Shown: piece by piece, positions 1 to 12,811 of the stretch
Layout: every line of letters starts with the position of its first letter
Position numbering within the stretch: the first letter of the stretch is position 1
Assembly (NCBI GenBank): GCA_027053075.1
Contig: JALUEE010000031.1
Location: 1-16,862 of the forward strand
Length of the DNA: 16,862 nt
Origin: a candidate division WOR-3 bacterium
GTDB taxonomy: Bacteria; Hydrothermota; Hydrothermia; B15-G9; WFZT01
Reading direction: 5' to 3'
Program-made: the position numbers and the translations under genes
Notes under the pieces: generated by a model
Database searches by the model: none
Seen by the model: only the letters and a program-made list of their open reading frames with translations
Told to the model about the DNA's origin: nothing

Positions 1-3000
1 CTCTCCTGCCCTGTGATCTGTAAGGATTTACGCCAGTAGGAAGTCCATCCTCTGTGTGGTCGAGTGTCTCTTCTCTTATTACACTGAAATCGCTTGAAAC
101 AACTGCTGTCTTCAAACTCCAGCTCTGTGGAGTGAATAGGGTATCACCCGCCATCTGACCTGCCATTTCCTCATATACTATATAGTAATTACCATCACTG
201 TATGAAACTCCATACCCTGGTGAGAATTGCCCCATCTTCACCACAAAGTGTTCGTTTTCAAAACCGTCACTATGGGTCCTTGCAAACAAACTGTCGTTCC
301 TGACGTAAAATACTGTAAATGAGCTATCGGTGTGTACTGCTACAGGGTTGTAACCTTTACAAATAATATTTTCTCGACTCCACCCGGTAACGGTATTATC
401 AGACTGGACATAATTGACATATCCATATCTTGAGAAGAAGATATAATTTGAGTCACCGTGGTGAATTGATGAAAGATCGCCTTTCATAATGTCAGGTCTA
501 ATTACAATCTCGTCTTTAACTTTAAATGATCTTTCTTTAAAGGCCATTTCACTTGCATTCAGATCATAAAGAGCAAGGTATTTTTGGTAAATTCCAGCTC
601 TACCTCTATATCTATTGGAAAATGCAACTTGTCCATTATTGTAAGCATGTCTTTCTATAATTCTCGAAGACCATTGAGTATTTCCAGCGGGTCTTGTGTA
701 AGTTATAAATTTAGAAAAAGATTCGGTATCTCTCACTACAACACCAATAACTTCGTCACCGTAGGAATTTTGTGAGTAGTCAAGAGAAAATACGTTTTCA
801 CCTGTAATATCCTGTGTTATCATCTCTGTCCTATCTACCCAGATCATATCTGCTACACCATCAATCACCGCCTCCTTTATTCCTTCCTCCGAGGCCCAAA
901 CAACCCTATTATTATCTGAATCAACAAAACCTCCGTATGCCTGGATCGTGTCTAAAACCACATAACTGTATTCATCATCTCCGTAGAAAGCTATAATTTT
1001 ACTTCCGCTGGGATAATTGCTGGAATTTAGAACAACTCCCCATGGAAACTCTGCCACCTCTACTCCATCTACCTTTAGTGGGCTCAAGCTCGCGACAGAA
1101 GTAGTATTAAATAAATTATGGGCGTCAATGTAACCTAATATCGATATAGTGTTTGATAAAGTGTATTCAGCCCAGTATATTCTTTCTTCTAAACTATTAT
1201 GTACTGTAAACACAAAATTTATCCCTACATTGTTACTTTCTCTGTTCCAGATTAATGTTGGATGTCCTGCCACACCGTTTCCTGAGAAAACTTCTATCAC
1301 TCCATGCAATCCGACGCCACTGTATGTTATAAAATCGACATGGCTAATATTATTCCCGAGCTCGTAAATTGCCAAACCAGCAAACTTTACACCATTCTGT
1401 AGGTCCACTGGAATCATGTCAAATTTAAATGATCTAATCACAAAATCGGATATCAATCGGTAGATGGTATCTTCTGTAGTCCAATTAATCCCGTCCATAG
1501 AAGATTTGAGCAATATTATCATCCCATGCCATTTACTTCCGCTGACAGATTGTGCTATAGCAATATATTCCTTATTGCCCTTATGCATAACTTTTGAAGC
1601 ATTCTGCACTAAAAATGTTGGAGTATTGTACACTCTCTCAGTAACCCATTCTGAAGCAACGTCGTCATTATTAATAGCCCTGATTTTATAATCGTATGTA
1701 TGAAATGGAGCGACCGTATGGTCCACATAACTTGTTGCATCACTGTCGTTGATCGTTATAGTTCTGACATTTCCTTCCTCATCGATTCTCTGGATTTCAT
1801 ATCCAGAATTATATCGAGACCTGTCCGTCCAGGTAAGGGTAACATTTCGATAGTTATTTGATGTTGAGACATTAAAGTTTGAAGGTTCATTTAATGCAGT
1901 CAACACCGGGTTCAATGGTAGAATGTAAGGCCAGTAAAGGTCAGGATGTTCGACAGGATTCTGATCTTCCGATCTTACAGGATTTCCATTGACAAAGTAG
2001 TGTTGATAATAAGGGTTCGAGTATACTGCACTCTGACTATTATAAACACCTCTGTAATCCGAGCTAAACATGGTGGCAAATTGATTAGGGTTATCCCGAT
2101 TACCTGTTCGTACTTCAAAGAAAACAGTATCAGATCCATTACTCACGATTTCCTGGGCATTAAAAAGTAGAGTACCATCATGACGAGCAATATCTGTAAA
2201 TTGAACCGAGGTTATTGGTATAGGAGTTTTAACACTTCTAATGTTTATTTTGGTATTCCCAAAAGTAACGATGTCGTAATTTAAATTCAGTATTTTGGGG
2301 TCTCCTTCGACTTCTATAGATTCTGGCAAATAAATCTCACTATTACTATCCGCGAAAAACAGATTAATCACTCCCGGTTGATCCACAAACCTATCATTTG
2401 GTATATTCCACATCCCTCCCAATAGACCAGCTTTTCTCGCAAGCGACCATATTGGTCTTCCATTTAATCTATAATCTAAAGATTGGGGACCATTGACAAA
2501 CACATCCCTCATTATAGGAAATAATTCTATTGCCCTCAAAATTTCACCAGAGTATGATGCTCTCATGCAAGGTTTATCTATAGTCCCGTAGATATAGAAA
2601 AACTCAATTTCCCTCCTCAAATCGTAATATTCCTCCGGTCTATCTGAGCTTGGGATACAACTCCATAATTCATCAAAATTCTCAGGAGTTTCAAAATAAG
2701 TATACCATGGATTATCGCCTAGGCAGTAGTCAAAGACTGAATGGACTACACTCAATAGAGCTGCTCTCAAAGCAGGCCATGCTATCGTCTGTATAAGGTC
2801 ACAGATAACCGGGGTGTCACACAATCTCCAATAATTATCTCCTATATCTACCCAAAAATTAGCAATATCATTAAAGCTCCACTGAGGATGTGAAAAAATC
2901 CCACCAAGATCAGTTCCATTCCGTCTGTATCCCATGGTCAAAAATAACATCATAGCCCATCCATGTAGATATGACTCTAATCTTTCCTGAGTGAGAGAAC

Positions 3001-3829
3001 TGTTACCATAACCCACGTGTTGTGCCGCCTCCACGAATTTCTGAACAGGTAGGAAGTTCATATCTTGCCATCTACCCATTATCCTACCATTAATACTGAC
3101 TCTATAATAAAATTCCATTGCTCCCCAGACGTAATTAATAAATACTGATCCGCTGAACATCGAGCCTCGATACAATATATTTCTAATATGTGACCAGTCT
3201 GGTATAAATGTGGGAGTAAAAAGTTCATAGAAAGATTCAGCATAAAAGAGAATATCTTCCGTATTCCCTCCCAGATTAAATGCACTATCGGATTCAACAG
3301 CATAACCATAACCAAACCTGCTTGGCTGAAGCACCATGTGGGCAAATAAATCCTGAATCACGTGCATATAAGCTCCATATATCAATGCCTTTTCAAGAGA
3401 AGTCCAATGGTGATCACGTGCATATATAGCCATTTCTCTCAACTTCTCAAGATTGGTATTGGGTGGATTACCATTGAATGTTATCGGAGTTTGAACCGCG
3501 TTATGTGTGTGATCTTGAATATACATCGGACCAGTTGCATGATTTCTATGATTATACAAACTATTTATAAAACTGCGAATCTTGTTTTGTGCATCTGTAT
3601 CGAACATATCTGGAATAGTTAAACCTATCAGATAGAATTTCTTAATAAGAAGAGCATTTTCTCCATACATGTATCCTCTTAAAGCGTTCGCAAAAGATGT
3701 GTCTCCAAATGCCTCCCAGAAAGATATAGCTCCATCTCTCATACCAAGATACATATGTGTTGCAGGGTTAAATCCCGCAAGTTTGCTCACTCCTAATAAA
3801 AATACTAAAATTAATATATTCTTTTTCAT
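1..3829 (-). CDS. Giant secreted multidomain protein, >1276 aa, 3' end outside the window: signal peptide, Zn-dependent phospholipase C / S1-P1 nuclease-like domain, unknown region, FN3 domain, Asp-box/beta-propeller-like region
   Basis: Not in the ORF track. Manual translation from ATG 3829 (SD GGAGGTG at 3840-3834) is stop-free to position 1. It begins MKKNILILVFLLGVSKLAG/FNPATH. Motifs: FYLIGLTIPDMF (D74), YGAYMHVIQDLFAH (H156/D160/H164), FN3-like NEPSNFNV...VTLTWTD...GYEIQR...SYVDHTV...YDYKIRAIN...SEW (nt ~1891-1630), Asp-box-like SMDGINW (nt ~1501-1481). The ORF itself is secure; the domain calls are motif-based. Confidence 0.93.
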   Translation of the reverse strand, partial: MKKNILILVFLLGVSKLAGFNPATHMYLGMRDGAISFWEAFGDTSFANALRGYMYGENALLIKKFYLIGLTIPDMFDTDAQNKIRSFINSLYNHRNHATGPMYIQDHTHNAVQTPITFNGNPPNTNLEKLREMAIYARDHHWTSLEKALIYGAYMHVIQDLFAHMVLQPSRFGYGYAVESDSAFNLGGNTEDILFYAESFYELFTPTFIPDWSHIRNILYRGSMFSGSVFINYVWGAMEFYYRVSINGRIMGRWQDMNFLPVQKFVEAAQHVGYGNSSLTQERLESYLHGWAMMLFLTMGYRRNGTDLGGIFSHPQWSFNDIANFWVDIGDNYWRLCDTPVICDLIQTIAWPALRAALLSVVHSVFDYCLGDNPWYTYFETPENFDELWSCIPSSDRPEEYYDLRREIEFFYIYGTIDKPCMRASYSGEILRAIELFPIMRDVFVNGPQSLDYRLNGRPIWSLARKAGLLGGMWNIPNDRFVDQPGVINLFFADSNSEIYLPESIEVEGDPKILNLNYDIVTFGNTKINIRSVKTPIPITSVQFTDIARHDGTLLFNAQEIVSNGSDTVFFEVRTGNRDNPNQFATMFSSDYRGVYNSQSAVYSNPYYQHYFVNGNPVRSEDQNPVEHPDLYWPYILPLNPVLTALNEPSNFNVSTSNNYRNVTLTWTDRSRYNSGYEIQRIDEEGNVRTITINDSDATSYVDHTVAPFHTYDYKIRAINNDDVASEWVTERVYNTPTFLVQNASKVMHKGNKEYIAIAQSVSGSKWHGMIILLKSSMDGINWTTEDTIYRLISDFVIRSFKFDMIPVDLQNGVKFAGLAIYELGNNISHVDFITYSGVGLHGVIEVFSGNGVAGHPTLIWNRESNNVGINFVFTVHNSLEERIYWAEYTLSNTISILGYIDAHNLFNTTSVASLSPLKVDGVEVAEFPWGVVLNSSNYPSGSKIIAFYGDDEYSYVVLDTIQAYGGFVDSDNNRVVWASEEGIKEAVIDGVADMIWVDRTEMITQDITGENVFSLDYSQNSYGDEVIGVVVRDTESFSKFITYTRPAGNTQWSSRIIERHAYNNGQVAFSNRYRGRAGIYQKYLALYDLNASEMAFKERSFKVKDEIVIRPDIMKGDLSSIHHGDSNYIFFSRYGYVNYVQSDNTVTGWSRENIICKGYNPVAVHTDSSFTVFYVRNDSLFARTHSDGFENEHFVVKMGQFSPGYGVSYSDGNYYIVYEEMAGQMAGDTLFTPQSWSLKTAVVSSDFSVIREETLDHTEDGLPTGVNPYRSQGRR

Positions 3830-3850
3830 AATTCACCTCCTACCAATTGT

Positions 3851-5008
3851 TCAAAATCCTATAGTATCATAAAAAATATCGTACTGATAATGGGTTTCAT
3901 CTTTTTGGATGATGCTCTCCCAAACAAGATGAACGCCTCCCTCTGGGCCCATAGCTCCAGAAAGTGTCCATGCCCATAAAGGGAAGTCCATCTCATTGAC
4001 TGTCCCCCACCTACCATCTCTCCTAATAATATATTGCACCGGAATGTTCAGACTACTTCTACCATCTACCCAGGCAAGTAATAGCTCACCAGTATGAAAT
4101 GCTACATATTTATGTCTTGGCCATCCCACTGTCCTTGGTATTGTATCCGGCTCCGTCCAACTCCCGTTCTCAAGATGTGTGTAATATATTATCCCTGTAT
4201 TCCATCCTGCTCTGTAATCTTGCTCAGTCCAGAATATCCATGGGTGATCCTCTTCGTCCAGAAATATGTATCCGTACCATGACTTGTAATCACTATGGGT
4301 AACATTCACCTGACTCCATTCTCCTGAAGGGGAGCGGTAAATATAATAAATATCACGGTCCCCTTCCCACACAACGTGCAATCCACCTTCTCGATCAACT
4401 GCAATAGACGGATTTAGGACATAGTAGGGAGATGTTTCAGTTGCACTCCAATGACCATCTGACATTTTTTTCTTATATCTCATCCTCAGACCTTCAGACC
4501 ATATAACATACACAACACCAGATGAGTCCACCGCAATACGTGGTTGGTCAGCAAAGTCCTCCCCTGACAAAACTATCGTCCTTGTCCACTCCCCTGTCGG
4601 TGTTCTCATTCGATAGTATATCTTTACATCATTTTGCCCAATTGTGTTCGCCTCCCACACAAGATGTACATTGCCAAATGGATCCGCTACGATGTGTGGA
4701 GCCCATGCGTCGTGTAAACTGTCTGAGAGTATCTCTATATCACTCCAATCCTCATCGGGTGGTTTATACCGGAAGTATATTCGGGATGGGTCATATCTTG
4801 TTCTACCACCGTCCATCCATGCCACATACACCGTACCGTCATGTCCAATCGCTATCCATGGGCCGTAAGACTGCGTAGAATCTGTCCTCGATATATTCCT
4901 TGGATCATACTGTGGACCTGGTGGGTTATTACCAGGATTAAATGTTGACCTCTTGCATGACACAAAAAGAGCCAATCCTAAAATTATCAATTTTTTGATA
5001 TTCAACAC
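3851..5008 (-). CDS. Lipoprotein with a 7-repeat beta-propeller (BNR/sialidase-like fold), function unknown
   Basis: 385-aa ORF with basic N-terminus, hydrophobic stretch and lipobox LFVS-C18. Seven repeats of the type P-x-I-A-V-D-x-x-G-x-V-H-V-V-W-x-[DE] (e.g. QPRIAVDSSGVVYVIWSE, NPSIAVDREGGLHVVWEG). SD GAGGAGGT at 5018-5011 lies 2 nt from GTG 5008 but 5 nt from TTG 5005, so the true start is probably TTG 5005. Confidence 0.88.
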   Translation of the reverse strand: MLNIKKLIILGLALFVSCKRSTFNPGNNPPGPQYDPRNISRTDSTQSYGPWIAIGHDGTVYVAWMDGGRTRYDPSRIYFRYKPPDEDWSDIEILSDSLHDAWAPHIVADPFGNVHLVWEANTIGQNDVKIYYRMRTPTGEWTRTIVLSGEDFADQPRIAVDSSGVVYVIWSEGLRMRYKKKMSDGHWSATETSPYYVLNPSIAVDREGGLHVVWEGDRDIYYIYRSPSGEWSQVNVTHSDYKSWYGYIFLDEEDHPWIFWTEQDYRAGWNTGIIYYTHLENGSWTEPDTIPRTVGWPRHKYVAFHTGELLLAWVDGRSSLNIPVQYIIRRDGRWGTVNEMDFPLWAWTLSGAMGPEGGVHLVWESIIQKDETHYQYDIFYDTIGF

Positions 5009-5867: not shown

Positions 5868-7691
5868 CTATATTTTCCCCAATTTCTCCAGAATCTCCGG
5901 TATTAGCCTGTATCTTCCAAGGGGTGGCATGAAGAGGATACCATTCACGAGGTCAATAATGCCCTCAATAACCTCTATGGCAATCTCTATACCCTCAAGT
6001 TCCCCCTCGCGTCCGCTTTTGCCCTTCATCCTCCGCAGAAACTCCTCAGGTATTTCAATCCCCGGAACCTCATAATGCAGGTATTCAGCATTTCTGTATG
6101 ATACAAGCGGCATGATTCCAGCTATTACAGGGACATCCTTTAATTTTTCAAAAACTTGCCTTGCGGCTTTTACGTCATAAACAGGCTGTGTCACAACAAA
6201 ATGTGCCCCCTTTTTAATCTTCCGGAGTACATTTTTAAGCATTCTCTCGGGGTCTCCTGAAACGCTCATTCCCACTCCGATGAAAAAATGGGTCTTTGCA
6301 CTGATAGGATTCCCCAGGAAATCCACACCGTGGTTCAGTGCTGACATGAGCTCCACAAGTCCCTCAGATGTCAGGTCATACACCCCGGTTGCAAAGGGAT
6401 AATCACCGATTGACGGTGGATCACCTGAAAGTGCAATAAAGTTTTCCAGTCCCAGCGCATCTGCACCAAGTAGATCAGATTGGATACCGATGATATTCCT
6501 GTCCCTGCATGTGTAATGGACAACAACCTCTTTGCCAAGACGCTCTTTTAACAATCGAGCCACAGCGATGGGTGACATGCGCGGACGGGCCATTGGACTA
6601 TCAGAAACCGTGAGGGCAAAGATGCCATCGCTGTAAGGCTTTATCTTTTTGATGAAGGCCTCAATATCCGCGCCACGTGGTGGGTCAACCTCCATGAGAA
6701 ATGTCTTTCCTCTCTCAAGCTGCTCTTTCAGTTTTGATCGAATCTCTTCTTTCTTCTTCATCTCACCGGTGCTTTCTTCAACTACAACTCGAGACACTCG
6801 CCTTTTGCCACGCTTAACCCCCTTCAGTCTCTCTTTTAGTTTTCTAATATGCTCCGGGGTGGTTCCACAGCATCCACCGATGACCTTCACCCCAAATTCA
6901 AGAAACTTTTTCCCATACTCAGCGAAGTAGTCAGGATTGTAAGGGTAGTAGAATTTTCCCTGGACAAACTGGGCACGTCCTGCATTGGGCATGGCAGAAA
7001 GCTCTTTCGTGGTTACAGATGCCATCTTTCGAACCGCTTCATAGACGTTCTGTGGGCCAAGTCCACAATTGGAGCCGATGACATCTGCCTCGCTTCTGTC
7101 CAGCTTTGCTCCCACTTCATAGGGATTCTTACCAAAGAGGGTGAGTCCATTATTGGGAAATGACATCTCTGCAATGACAAACACGTCGGGATCAACCTCT
7201 TTTGCCACCCGAATCCCCACTAAAAGCTCTTCGAGGCACGAGAAGGTCTCAAATACAAGCAGATCAACTCCACCTTCAAGTAATGCCTCTATCTGTTCCC
7301 TGAAAATGCTCTCCGCTTCCTCATCTGAAAGCCGCTTCTCGCGATCCAGTGGACGTGAAATTGGCCCAATTGAGCCCGCGACAAAGATATCATCTTTCGC
7401 AACTGCCCTTGCAATTCTTGCCCCGTAGTAATTGATTTCACGGGTTTTATTTCCAATTCCAAAATACTCTTCAAGGATAAATCTGTTCGCGCCAAAGGTA
7501 TTGGTGGTGATGACCTCTGCTCCTGCCTCTTTGTAAGCGGCATGAATTTCTTTCACAATCTCGGGCATAGTTATGTTCAGCTCATCGTAGCACAGTCCTT
7601 TGGGTACACCACGGGCATAAATCTCGGTGCCCATGGCACCGTCAAACACGATATAATCCTTTTCCTCGAAAAATTCTCTAAACTTCATCAA
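5868..7691 (-). CDS. yitJ: Bifunctional homocysteine S-methyltransferase / methylenetetrahydrofolate reductase (YitJ-type)
   Basis: N-terminal Hcy-binding domain: DGAMGT, TNTFGAN, Zn ligands in SNCGLGP and GGCCGTTPEHI. C-terminal MTHFR domain: EVDPPRG, DSPMARPRMS, HYTCRDRN, SGDP, VTQPVYD. Position 7691 is TTG; ATG 7688, 8-9 nt downstream of GAGGA, is the likelier start. Overlaps the metH stop codon. Confidence 0.92.
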   Translation of the reverse strand: MMKFREFFEEKDYIVFDGAMGTEIYARGVPKGLCYDELNITMPEIVKEIHAAYKEAGAEVITTNTFGANRFILEEYFGIGNKTREINYYGARIARAVAKDDIFVAGSIGPISRPLDREKRLSDEEAESIFREQIEALLEGGVDLLVFETFSCLEELLVGIRVAKEVDPDVFVIAEMSFPNNGLTLFGKNPYEVGAKLDRSEADVIGSNCGLGPQNVYEAVRKMASVTTKELSAMPNAGRAQFVQGKFYYPYNPDYFAEYGKKFLEFGVKVIGGCCGTTPEHIRKLKERLKGVKRGKRRVSRVVVEESTGEMKKKEEIRSKLKEQLERGKTFLMEVDPPRGADIEAFIKKIKPYSDGIFALTVSDSPMARPRMSPIAVARLLKERLGKEVVVHYTCRDRNIIGIQSDLLGADALGLENFIALSGDPPSIGDYPFATGVYDLTSEGLVELMSALNHGVDFLGNPISAKTHFFIGVGMSVSGDPERMLKNVLRKIKKGAHFVVTQPVYDVKAARQVFEKLKDVPVIAGIMPLVSYRNAEYLHYEVPGIEIPEEFLRRMKGKSGREGELEGIEIAIEVIEGIIDLVNGILFMPPLGRYRLIPEILEKLGKI

Positions 7692-10074
7692 TCATTTCCT
7701 CAATTTTTCGCACAGTATCAATGGCATCCCTGCAGTATGCATCAGCACCGATCTCATCAGCAAACTCCTGATTCACTGCAGCGCCACCAATGAAAACCTT
7801 TGCACGGGGATAAATTTTGTTTTTCAGGTCAATCACATCCTTCATCCCGTCCATGGTGGTCGTCATAAGAGCAGAAAGACCAATAAAGTCCGCATTCTCA
7901 CGCTTTACCGTCTCAACTATTGTCGAGGCATCCACATTTTTCCCGAGGTCAATTACATCGTAACCGTAGTTTCTCAGAACGAGAGCCACTATATTTTTCC
8001 CGATATCGTGGAGGTCACCCTTGACTGTTGCCATGACTATCTTCGCCTTCTTTGAAGCTTTCCCATCGAGCTTGAGATAGTTTTCAAGAACCTCTGCTGC
8101 GCCTTCCATAGCCTCAGCAGAAAGAATGAGCTGCGGCAAGAAGTAAATCTTCTTCTCGTAAAGCTCTCCCACCTTTCTCATGGCAGGAATAAGAATCTCA
8201 TTTAAAATCTCAAATGCCCCTTTTCCGGACTCAAGAAGCTTCTTCGTAAGTCTCACTGTTTTCTCCCGCTCCCCCTCGACCACAGCATTAAACAATTCCT
8301 CTTCCGGGCCCCGGGCTTCCTTTTTCTCCTCCACGACCTGCAAATCCACCTGTTTTCCAAACTGTTCAATATAAAACTTCATTCCTGCGTCCCTGCCGGT
8401 CAGGGCATCGGTCGCCTTGATAAGATTCATCATCTCCTGGTCAAGGGGATTAAGAATTGCAGAATCAAGCCCATGCCACACAGCAATGGGCAAGAATGCC
8501 CTGTTTAAAAATTTCCGTGCAGGAAGTCCATAGGAGAGGTTGGAAAGGCCAATTGTGGTCGGGATTCCTCTTTCACTCAGCAATTTGATGGTCTCGAGGG
8601 TCACCCGCAAAGCTTCCTGTGACGTGGACATGGTTAAAACCACCGGGTCTGCAATCAAATCGTTGAGACTATAGCCAAAATTAAGGGCCTTTTCCACAAG
8701 ATTTTCTATAATTTTCACCCTGCCTTCCACTGTATCTGGTATCCCGTCCTTGTCCATTGCGAGGAGCACGAGAGATGCACCAAACCTACGGCCGATGGGC
8801 ATCAAATCTTTGTATGTTTCGCCGTTGACCGAATTTAAAACAGGCTTTCCTGCGTAGAGCTTGAAAGCCTGCTCGATGGCCTCAAGATTGGCATTGTCTA
8901 TAAAAAGTGGAAGCCTGGTGGTATTCTGCAGCACCCGGATGGCACCTGAGTAAAAGGTCGCATCCTTTTCCCCTTTTCTACCAAGATTCACATCCAGGGC
9001 ATGAGCGCCGGCATGCTCCTGCTTTCTTGCATATTCTCTTGCAAGATTTAGTTTTCCTGCCTTTAGCTCCTCGTTGAGTTTCTTTTTCCCGTAGGGATTG
9101 ATGTTCTCACCAATCACCTTAAACGGGAGACCTTTTCCAATAAAAATTGGCCTATTCCTGCTCGTTGCCCTGAAGTAATTTTCAATTTCCTCTCTCCTTC
9201 GTGGAGGACGATTTTTCAGTGCATTCGCAATAAGCCTGATGTGCTCCGGGGTGGTTCCACAGCATCCACCAATGATATTTGTACCAAGTTCATAAAACTC
9301 GAGGGGGTACTGGAGGTACTCATCGGGTCCGAGTGGATAAACAACCCTATCACCGTGCTTTTCGGGGATGCCAGCGTTGGCATAGACAATTATTGGCTTC
9401 TTGGAGTGCTTTTTTATTTTCTTAATAAATTCAACAAATTCGCGGGGATGTCCACCACAGTTAAGTCCAAAGATATCCACATCGAGGGAGGCAAATGTAA
9501 TGGCCGCAATCTCCGGGTCTGAGCCTGTAACGGTCAGGCCTCCCTCCATTGGATAGGAGATGGAAACTGCCACAGGCAGATTTGTATTCTCTTTTGCAGC
9601 AATGGCTCCTATCTTTGCCTCCAGAATGTCAATCTGTGTCTCAATCAGGATCAGGTCAGCTCCACCCCTTTCCAGCGCCTTCGCCTGCTCTTTATAGACC
9701 TCATAAACCTCATCCTCGTCAAGTTCTCCAAGCGGTTTTATGAGCTTGCCAATGGGGCCTATTGAGCCGGCAATGTAAACTCTTCGTGACCCTCTCGCGC
9801 GCTTTGCAACCTCGACCGCAGCAATGTTCAATTCCTCAAGCCTGTCCTCAGCGCCAAACTCACGAAGTTTTATGCGATTGCCGCCAAAGGTATTGGTTTC
9901 AATAATGTCTGCACCAGCGTCAATATAATCTCTGTGAATCTTTTCTACCAATTCTGGATTTTCCACATTTAGGAGCTCGGGGAAGTCAAACTTTCTGCCC
10001 GTTCGTCGTATGAGCTCCGTGCCCATAGCCCCATCTAAAATTAGAACCCGTTTTTTCAGCTCCTCAAGTATCAT
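7678..10074 (-). CDS. metH: Cobalamin-dependent methionine synthase, short form (Hcy, pterin, cap and B12 domains; no reactivation domain)
   Basis: DGAMGTEL, LNCGG and GGCCGTTPEHI (Zn site); VIGENINPYG and LDVN (pterin domain); FLPQLILSAEAM (cap); VKGDLHDIGKNIV (DxHxxG) and GLSALMTTT (B12 domain). The 798-aa protein ends right after the B12 domain. Confidence 0.95.
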   Translation of the reverse strand: MILEELKKRVLILDGAMGTELIRRTGRKFDFPELLNVENPELVEKIHRDYIDAGADIIETNTFGGNRIKLREFGAEDRLEELNIAAVEVAKRARGSRRVYIAGSIGPIGKLIKPLGELDEDEVYEVYKEQAKALERGGADLILIETQIDILEAKIGAIAAKENTNLPVAVSISYPMEGGLTVTGSDPEIAAITFASLDVDIFGLNCGGHPREFVEFIKKIKKHSKKPIIVYANAGIPEKHGDRVVYPLGPDEYLQYPLEFYELGTNIIGGCCGTTPEHIRLIANALKNRPPRRREEIENYFRATSRNRPIFIGKGLPFKVIGENINPYGKKKLNEELKAGKLNLAREYARKQEHAGAHALDVNLGRKGEKDATFYSGAIRVLQNTTRLPLFIDNANLEAIEQAFKLYAGKPVLNSVNGETYKDLMPIGRRFGASLVLLAMDKDGIPDTVEGRVKIIENLVEKALNFGYSLNDLIADPVVLTMSTSQEALRVTLETIKLLSERGIPTTIGLSNLSYGLPARKFLNRAFLPIAVWHGLDSAILNPLDQEMMNLIKATDALTGRDAGMKFYIEQFGKQVDLQVVEEKKEARGPEEELFNAVVEGEREKTVRLTKKLLESGKGAFEILNEILIPAMRKVGELYEKKIYFLPQLILSAEAMEGAAEVLENYLKLDGKASKKAKIVMATVKGDLHDIGKNIVALVLRNYGYDVIDLGKNVDASTIVETVKRENADFIGLSALMTTTMDGMKDVIDLKNKIYPRAKVFIGGAAVNQEFADEIGADAYCRDAIDTVRKIEEMIDEV

Positions 10075-10697
10075 CTTTCAACACCTATCACCGCGGTTAT
10101 TGTTTTTTGCGGATAGAGCAGATTTTTCTCGTTGATTTTTATACCCATTTCGTCAAGTCTTAATTCTTCATAAATTTCCCTCTGAAATTCAAGGCCCAGG
10201 TCCCCATAGCCCGGACTGAATCTCATAGTGAGAAAACTTCTTGCATGCCTCGCCTGTGTATCAAGGAGGCTGTTTAGCGAGTTGGCAACTGCCTCAACTG
10301 CCTCGGAGCCAATGACGTCAAAAATGATTGCCCGCTCCATCCTTCCAGATTCTGTTTCCTCCTTGATTTTTTCGTCAATTCCAGGTCCAATGGTTACCGC
10401 CATAAATATGACTGCGTATGAATCCTTTAGAAGTTTTCTCATTGACTCACCCCTGAGGGTTATTTTCGTGTTATAGAAAGTGATGGAATCGTTCTTTTCT
10501 TTAATCCGTCGAATGATATAAGTTCCTGCAGGCTTAATCAGGTTTTCTGCCTCGTGAAAACATTCTTCAACAAGGGATTTTATACGGGGTGAGATAACGG
10601 TTTTCTTGAACCTGTAACCTAAAAGACCCCAGACCGCCTTCCTGTTTATCTCGAAGTTTTCAATGCGGTGGAGTCTTATGAGCCTGTCATATAGCAT
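10071..10697 (-). CDS. Stand-alone methionine synthase reactivation (AdoMet-binding) domain protein
   Basis: 208 aa with MAVTIGPG, IGSEAVEA, RFSPGYGDL and LLYPQKTITAVIG. 4-nt ATGA overlap with metH. Confidence 0.9.
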   Translation of the reverse strand: MLYDRLIRLHRIENFEINRKAVWGLLGYRFKKTVISPRIKSLVEECFHEAENLIKPAGTYIIRRIKEKNDSITFYNTKITLRGESMRKLLKDSYAVIFMAVTIGPGIDEKIKEETESGRMERAIIFDVIGSEAVEAVANSLNSLLDTQARHARSFLTMRFSPGYGDLGLEFQREIYEELRLDEMGIKINEKNLLYPQKTITAVIGVER

Positions 10698-12626: not shown

Positions 12627-12653
12627 GGAAAGTAGGGCTCATTTTCACAAATT

Positions 12654-12708
12654 CCCCCTCCTATCCTCCCCCACGCACTTTGTGCGTGGGGGAGGAACAA
12701 GGTGGGGG
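12654..12708. repeat. REP-like palindrome
   Basis: Perfect 15-bp inverted repeat TCCTCCCCCACGCAC (12664-12678), loop TTT, GTGCGTGGGGGAGGA (12682-12696), with imperfect outer arms CCCCCTCC / GGTGGGGG. Confidence 0.75.
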
Positions 12709-12811
12709 CAAATTTTTCATTAAAAATCAAAGGTTTTGAAATTTTTCGAATAGACTCAGGAAAGTAGAGATCATTTATTAAAAATAAAAATTGGTCAGCA
12801 ACAAAAATTTT

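Follow-up and report, generated by a model that had tools for sequence, protein, structure and literature searches.

A contig-truncated gene for a large, putatively type IX-exported protein with a phospholipase C/P1-like head and a linked lipoprotein gene in a candidate division WOR-3 bacterium

Contig JALUEE010000031.1 of a candidate division WOR-3 bacterium (16,862 nucleotides, nt; hereafter the window, which is the entire contig C31 of the 2.44-Mb assembly GCA_027053075.1) begins within a two-gene minus-strand cassette: a lipoprotein gene and, 21 nt beyond its end, a large open reading frame (ORF) that leaves the contig without a stop (Table 1). As claimed in the original prediction, which had been made from the letters of the window, the large frame (3829..2) held 0 stops over 1,276 codons, against 60 to 125 in each of the other five frames, whose longest open run was 92 codons; the chance of such an open frame at the composition of the stretch is ~1e-41. 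The strong Shine-Dalgarno signal described there was also found, as AGGAGG at 3841-3836, 6 nt ahead of the ATG. As for the short plus-strand ORFs, described there as antisense shadows of this frame, a single one of at least 80 amino acids (aa) lay in 1-3829, and it is probably such a shadow. The large ORF was likely absent from the ORF track because it runs off the contig end without a stop. An assembly artefact was rejected, as one of six frames was open, the product belongs to a conserved family, and a public contig, from a run on hydrothermal-vent material that may be the source sample, spanned 1814-3872 with 0 differences. The ORF is a real gene truncated by the contig end; its full length would be ~1,676 aa, provided that its tail is as long as that of its paralog. 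The promoter and terminator scan performed no better than chance level, the NCBIfam search returned no match for the large protein, and PADLOC matched neither this protein nor the lipoprotein.

The large protein opens with a Sec-type signal peptide, for which cleavage after LAG had been predicted. The leader is hydrophobic, and cleavage after G19 was supported by a small residue six positions before the first histidine in 74/74 relatives with a signal region (A48, G15, S7, C3, T1). Searches with head residues 20-480 found 29 long relatives at 24-42% identity plus 81 cluster representatives, and conservation extended to about residue 640, such that residues 20-640 form an unnamed family module; within its closing segment, Y592, Y608, P625, W633, and P634 were invariant in 28 sequences. 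A profile search of the phylum listed head-starting matches in 20 of 272 genomes, this genome included, with 402 further, weaker matches beyond those listed; head remnants in genomes G028 and G125 were found separately. All 272 genomes matched the family profile, mostly via the C-terminal tail among the matches listed. None of the five same-genus genomes matched the head family, and the spread of the head across the phylum is patchy.

AlphaFold2 models of residues 20-740 and 20-475 reached predicted local distance difference test (pLDDT) values of 94 and 91.7, respectively, and the longer one comprised a helical head, an Ig/FN3-like sandwich, and an FN3 domain, the last of which had been predicted and was confirmed by both model and fold search. 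When the head was compared with 48,161 PDB chains by an exhaustive structural aligner, ranks 1 to 3 were phospholipases C (PLCs: 1ah7, Z 5.8, root mean square deviation 5.5, 160 aligned; 1olp, Z 5.5; 8cqm, Z 5.3) and ranks 4 to 6 were S1/P1 nucleases (Z 4.3, 4.2, and 4.1), with the next unrelated chain at 3.7. These six alignments spanned model residues 1 to 428 at deviations of 4.5-5.5 Å. The purity of the top ranks, together with the motifs described below, argues at modest scores for the PLC/P1 assignment, which would hold at the superfamily level only; the head is very probably an exported metalloprotein of this fold. The family profile matched only FN3, FlgD, and sorting-tail chains in the PDB, and fold searches with a 721-aa model were swamped by FN3. 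Head matches in the Atlas (0.85-0.89; clusters named for PLC/D, DUF6765, VWA7_N, and PF00882) fell below 0.9 and serve as leads only.

The zinc ligands of Bacillus cereus PLC include Trp1, Asp55, His69, His118, Asp122, His128, His142, and Glu146, according to the portion of PMC10420013 that was available. In the WOR-3 protein, the motifs lay where they had been predicted: F20, H25, GLTIPD (D74), and HVIQDLFAH (H156, D160, H164). Counted among non-gap residues of 99 aligned sequences, H25 (75/76), D74 (80/81), H156 (77/79), and D160 (76/78) were near-invariant, with E198 at 65/70 and E202 at 61/71. Ligands were mapped by aligning the family with two stand-alone PF00882 proteins (profile match 90.7%, E = 1.3e-6) and nine exported heads that are more distant. 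Position 125 was His in all nine distant heads and in 24/82 family members, and is Thr in this protein; Asn124 occurred in 55/58 relatives lacking His125 and in 4/24 possessing it, counts that come from kin and are not independent. E198 aligned with the Glu of the H-x3-E motif of the stand-alone proteins, and the His of that motif fell at L194, a position with no His in 70 sequences. Positions 125, 194, and 198 would thereby be the equivalents of His69, His142, and Glu146, and the zinc centre was likely remodelled, because T125 and L194 replace the two histidines. Equivalents of the N-terminal residue, D55, H118, D122, H128, and E146 were present, as was the first His, the counterpart of His14, a further zinc ligand of the B. 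cereus enzyme. The head thus appears to resemble a PLC-fold metallo-phosphoesterase yet fails strict PF00882 membership.

The upstream lipoprotein gene was missed by the original prediction, and it is conserved. BNR_4 was detected in 46/58 members of its family, whose profile matched propeller structures. Among 24 other head loci, four lay too near contig ends; at 18 of the 20 informative ones the lipoprotein adjoined the head, directly upstream in 16 and directly downstream in two (both G225). G225 and G268 each hold two cassettes. Read from the lipoprotein outward, 29 loci yielded 16 informative ones once 8 larger non-lipoprotein matches and 5 cut-off loci were left out, and a head or head remnant was adjacent in 11/16. 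The lipoprotein also occurs as orphan or tandem copies. One such lipoprotein is present in the genome versus 60 matches to the sorting tail described below, which argues against a general helper role in export. Head genes were broken at 5/24 head loci, and the head was broken or reduced to a remnant beside an intact lipoprotein in G270, G032, G028, G158:C1 (a transposase insertion), and G125. In one G146 cassette both genes were broken; an intact head beside a broken lipoprotein was not seen at these loci. The lipoprotein is therefore often intact where the head gene decays. Lipoproteins were more diverged than heads (mean identity 24% versus 40%); a correlation between head and lipoprotein identities (18 pairs, rho 0.65, 0/2000 shuffles) was not used as evidence of co-evolution, since relatedness was uncontrolled.

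The remainder of the large protein is a module found on a second, different head, a point also overlooked initially. Residues 642-1276 were 79% identical to a 2,092-aa protein encoded on contig C33, whose head is unrelated, includes a Vps10-like propeller, and whose C terminus is PF18962. At the DNA level, identity between the two rose from ~58% to 92% near residue 669 and was 92-100% across the last ~500 nt. Only 2 relatives of the stalk were found. Loose contig ends C92 and C1 hold the last 181 and 145 residues of the paralog at 99% identity; assigning the missing 3' end to either failed, as both hold a near-identical tail and public contigs break within the repeat. Loose ends of the public run, at 1840 and 1855, joined other sequences to the stalk at FN3, the former reading by eye as the C33 head. 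Contig depth was 416-424 over the pieces in common, against 104 and 123 over the individual heads. The assembly likely broke at the stalk because three or four stalk copies fit this depth, although depth is not copy number. The heads and the common stalk form a mosaic, which may have arisen by recombination inside FN3, and what follows the head can be exchanged between members of the family. As to the identity of the stalk, the predicted beta-propeller-like modules are a lead only: an Atlas feature search of residues 740-1276 gave BNR-like clusters at 0.88-0.91, and Pfam had no match there. Separately, the C33 paralog is preceded by a PQQ-type propeller gene, a relative of which follows the head remnant in G028. 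Two further public runs showed 265 divergent bases in place of the central part of the lipoprotein gene (window 4306-4560), and one 3,285-bp contig linked the beginning of that gene to the FN3 stalk through a divergent stretch.

The original prediction had proposed to look beyond the contig end for a type IX secretion (T9SS) or FlgD-type sorting tail. Such a tail was present in the C33 paralog, on loose ends C1 and C92, and on 19/29 long relatives (five of the other ten being labelled partial), and one would be expected on the large protein, whose own 3' end lies beyond the contig. The genome encodes SprA (a 1,869-aa frame, over cut-off), and two PorV-family proteins, and it has the 60 tail matches, peptidase C25 proteins among them. 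Models of GldL, GldM, and GldN had no match in the genome and were blank in control genomes too; GldK was not searched. Export by the type IX system is likely, to judge from these sequence features. Type IX cargo folds in the periplasm once its signal is removed, according to the part of PMC11285876 available.

Table 1. Coordinates of the cassette, its parts, and the paralog; positions are those of the window unless another locus is given
Feature	Position	Strand	Basis
Shine-Dalgarno AGGAGGTG	3834..3841	-	read from sequence
Large exported protein (putative)	2..3829	-	1276 aa seen; 3' end cut off by contig end
Sec-type signal peptide, residues 1-19	3773..3829	-	sequence; small -1 residue in relatives
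Helical PLC/P1-fold head, residues 20-475	2405..3772	-	model (pLDDT 91.7), fold ranks 1-6, PF00882 below cut-off, conservation
Putative metal ligands F20 (N-terminus), H25, D74, N124, H156, D160, H164, E198 (E202)	head	-	conservation, alignment
Ig/FN3-like beta-sandwich, residues ~486-589, inside conserved family module	2063..2374	-	model and fold search, conservation
Conserved segment, residues 590-640, ends WPY, closes family module	1910..2062	-	28-sequence alignment
FN3 domain, residues ~644-737	1619..1900	-	model, fold search; holds head/stalk junction at ~1840-1855
Beta-rich stalk, residues 740-1276, likely propeller repeats, common to C33 paralog	2..1612	-	sequence identity, Atlas lead
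Upstream lipoprotein gene, 385 aa (GTG start; 384 from TTG)	3851..5008	-	lipobox FVSC18 by eye, BNR-type propeller
Paralog, 2092 aa	L001 7158-13436 (G000:C33)	-	same stalk, different head, sorting tail

We tentatively interpret the cassette (probability about 0.4) as encoding an exported, lipid-cleaving antibacterial effector and, as its immunity protein, a periplasmic lipoprotein. Once the signal is cleaved after G19, the N terminus that serves the PLC fold as a zinc ligand would be free and, with no pro-peptide between, the enzyme would already be active in the periplasm. A remodelled active centre holding two or three metals (F20, H25, D74, N124, H156, D160, H164, E198) would cleave a phosphodiester bond, most likely that of a membrane or envelope phospholipid. 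The lipid-anchored propeller is predicted to bind the head and shield the producer's membranes until the sorting tail carries the protein out through SprA/PorV, and recombination inside FN3 would swap heads on the common stalk. This interpretation is favoured because it best explains why the two genes are linked, why the lipoprotein outlasts a decaying head, and why the spread is patchy. A precedent is provided by Tle lipase effectors, whose immunity proteins (Tli), either periplasmic or lipoproteins, are encoded upstream, as the available text of PMC6560169 describes.

Several points weigh against an effector. With regard to fold, Z-scores of the head lie below 8, a range that the aligner calls common; Foldseek, given only the head, returned no match at E <= 0.001; phmmer had 0 matches for the head in the PDB at E <= 10; and the sole Pfam match, PF00882, stayed below its cut-off (E = 0.0011; 19.4 bits versus 26.8). 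The originally predicted PLC/P1 fold was upheld by the six top ranks but not by its weak Z-scores (5.8-4.1) or by Foldseek. At the putative metal site, seven of the nine PLC zinc positions were filled in the alignment, those of His69 and His142 being the exceptions, and H164 was His in only 49/70 relatives; of the five residues whose conservation the prediction had made part of its test, H25, D74, H156, and D160 were near-invariant and H164 was not. Among the loci, the intact head of G240 has no lipoprotein within ~6 kb of it, and this genome was not among the lipoprotein-matched ones; a head in G130 lacked an upstream lipoprotein, its downstream side being cut; and 5/16 lipoprotein-first loci were without a head. 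As would suit an export helper, the lipoprotein also lies ahead of different tail-bearing cargo at G009:C122 and G130:C37 and behind PorV-like genes in G130 and G125. Assembly errors can also produce frameshifts. At ~1,700 aa and probably tethered to the surface, the protein would be an awkward weapon, and many known tail-bearing cargoes are nutritional enzymes.

The alternative that survives best, although we consider it somewhat unlikely, is a nutritional exoenzyme: a surface-displayed phosphoesterase that scavenges phosphate or lipid and that the lipoprotein propeller would serve as a cargo-specific chaperone, anchor, or substrate-presenting subunit (in effect a split PLC-plus-propeller enzyme). 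It accounts for the exceptions (the partnerless head in G240, the lipoprotein ahead of other cargo and behind PorV-like genes) better than an effector does, and the C25 peptidases among the tail matches agree with it. A pure helper, however, should decay along with its enzyme, whereas the lipoprotein stayed intact beside a decayed head in five loci and persists in orphan and tandem copies; the patchiness of the head and the share of broken head genes also speak against it. A catalytically dead or non-hydrolytic head, that is, an adhesin gripping a phospho-ligand by its metal site, is improbable: the loss of two His ligands, the variability of H164, and the Vps10-like binding propeller on the paralog's stalk would suit it, but D74, H25, H156, D160, and E198 are near-invariant at ~40% mean head identity, and N124 tracks the loss of His125. 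Least probable is a secreted S1/P1-type nuclease or nucleotidase that scavenges DNA/RNA or remodels biofilm, since, despite a His at +6 from the mature N terminus (the P1 pattern) and S1/P1 chains at fold ranks 4-6, PLC chains ranked higher by 1.0-1.7 Z, PF02265 (whose check the original prediction had proposed alongside PF00882) had no match at E <= 1, position 77 is mostly Asp where S1/P1 enzymes carry a basic residue three after the catalytic Asp, and a periplasmic protector would be unneeded.

The effector interpretation can be extended, at a level that we regard as unlikely, to an inverted polymorphic toxin system that operates via type IX without a detectable Gld motor: interchangeable N-terminal heads, including several remodelled-zinc-phospholipase lineages, would be exchanged through recombination on a common stalk, present in several copies, with its sorting tail, and each lipid-attacking head would be neutralised by a cognate propeller lipoprotein. 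Known polymorphic toxin systems vary a C-terminal toxin domain on a shared N-terminal body, the reverse of the arrangement here, in which the N-terminal head varies and the C-terminal stalk is shared. In the part of PMC7073777 available, TANFOR polymorphic toxins of Bacteroidetes likewise combine a signal peptide, a modular toxin-like protein, and a type IX link, but their toxin is C-terminal and type IX export was hypothesised from neighbours, whereas here the sorting tail would be on the same chain. Type-IX-linked polymorphic toxins have already been proposed (PMC7073777 and PMC12419801, in the portions available), while a role for type IX in interbacterial attack is only a hypothesis in the former.

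Other known systems resemble single parts of the cassette. (i) Zn-dependent PLCs (1ah7, B. cereus PC-PLC; 1olp, clostridial alpha-toxin; 8cqm, Listeria PlcB; PF00882) share the helical fold, aligned from residue 1, and differ in that this ~450-aa head has large insertions, H-x3-D-x3-H spacing, no pro-peptide, and 12% identity, and sits on a stalk that would end in a sorting tail. (ii) S1/P1 nucleases (PF02265) share the fold and the +6 histidine; they differ by the absent profile match and by the basic residue after the catalytic Asp, which is missing here. (iii) The PLC/S1-P1-related Het-C domain, with HxxxDxxxH, has been proposed as a bacterial toxin exported by type II secretion, type VI secretion (T6SS), or PVC; unlike the present protein, which has an N-terminal head and a predicted type IX tail, it has an HxD motif, and the Het-C table lists no immunity protein (PMC3482391, in the part available). 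(iv) In T6SS Tle/Tli pairs, a periplasmic or lipoprotein partner gene likewise lies upstream of a putative lipid-attacking enzyme (PMC6560169, in part); enzyme fold and export route differ, and immunity here is a prediction only. (v) GPI-specific phospholipase D, to which the original prediction had likened the protein, has a PLC-like domain followed by an FG-GAP propeller. Beta-rich modules follow a PLC-like domain here as well, but Pfam found no FG-GAP repeats in the 1,276 aa seen (the 3' end lying beyond the contig) and the post-head region is exchangeable; the analogy was dropped for want of specific support.

More distant PLC-like heads occur elsewhere. G124:C24 (L119 2208-10039) carries a tandem array of a propeller lipoprotein, a PLC-like gene, a second propeller lipoprotein, a second PLC-like gene, and a 1,176-aa tail-bearing gene; both PLC-like genes keep the canonical H-x3-D-x5-H spacing, and the propeller lipoproteins are unrelated to the partner described above. 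This repeated pairing counts in favour of the effector interpretation. Further distant PF00882-like heads, several with ILEI and Ig domains and not matched by the head family profile, lie on large exported proteins of 829-3,970 aa (L113, L115, L116, L117, and L118; G260, G271, G252, and G074). In G260, genes of 340-470 aa lie ahead of the PLC-like cargoes; they were rejected as candidate partners, since they have their own sorting tail, and the two of them that were read from stop to stop look like repeated tail fragments.

The cassette (window 1-5008) has a G+C content of 38-44% (third positions 32-39%), and three neighbouring housekeeping genes have 47% (third positions 47-50%), a compositional hint that the cassette may have been acquired. 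Elsewhere in the window, minus-strand genes at 5868-10697 distribute methionine-synthase functions over three genes: a homocysteine methyltransferase-MTHFR fusion, a second methyltransferase whose domains bind pterin and B12, and a third gene with a weak match to the activation domain. One copy of a dispersed intergenic repeat, ~125 bp long and containing a strong hairpin, lies at 12649-12758; the repeat gave 111 BLAST hits on 48 contigs, 47 of them at least 90 bp long.

A literature search, which did not cover subscription journals, found no description of a T9SS or of such a phospholipase in WOR-3, and neither is mentioned in the main text of a WOR-3 genomics preprint. The parts of the cassette are of known kinds; new are the head family with its changed set of ligands, the cassette that it forms with the lipoprotein gene, and the inverted design in WOR-3 of a head on a shared stalk. 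The cassette adds an unannotated branch with a changed metal site to the PLC/P1 superfamily, and the genome reveals a type IX cargo repertoire in WOR-3. If the effector interpretation is true, the finding would bear on the role of type IX in interbacterial attack, for which the two-gene cassette offers a simple test in Escherichia coli.

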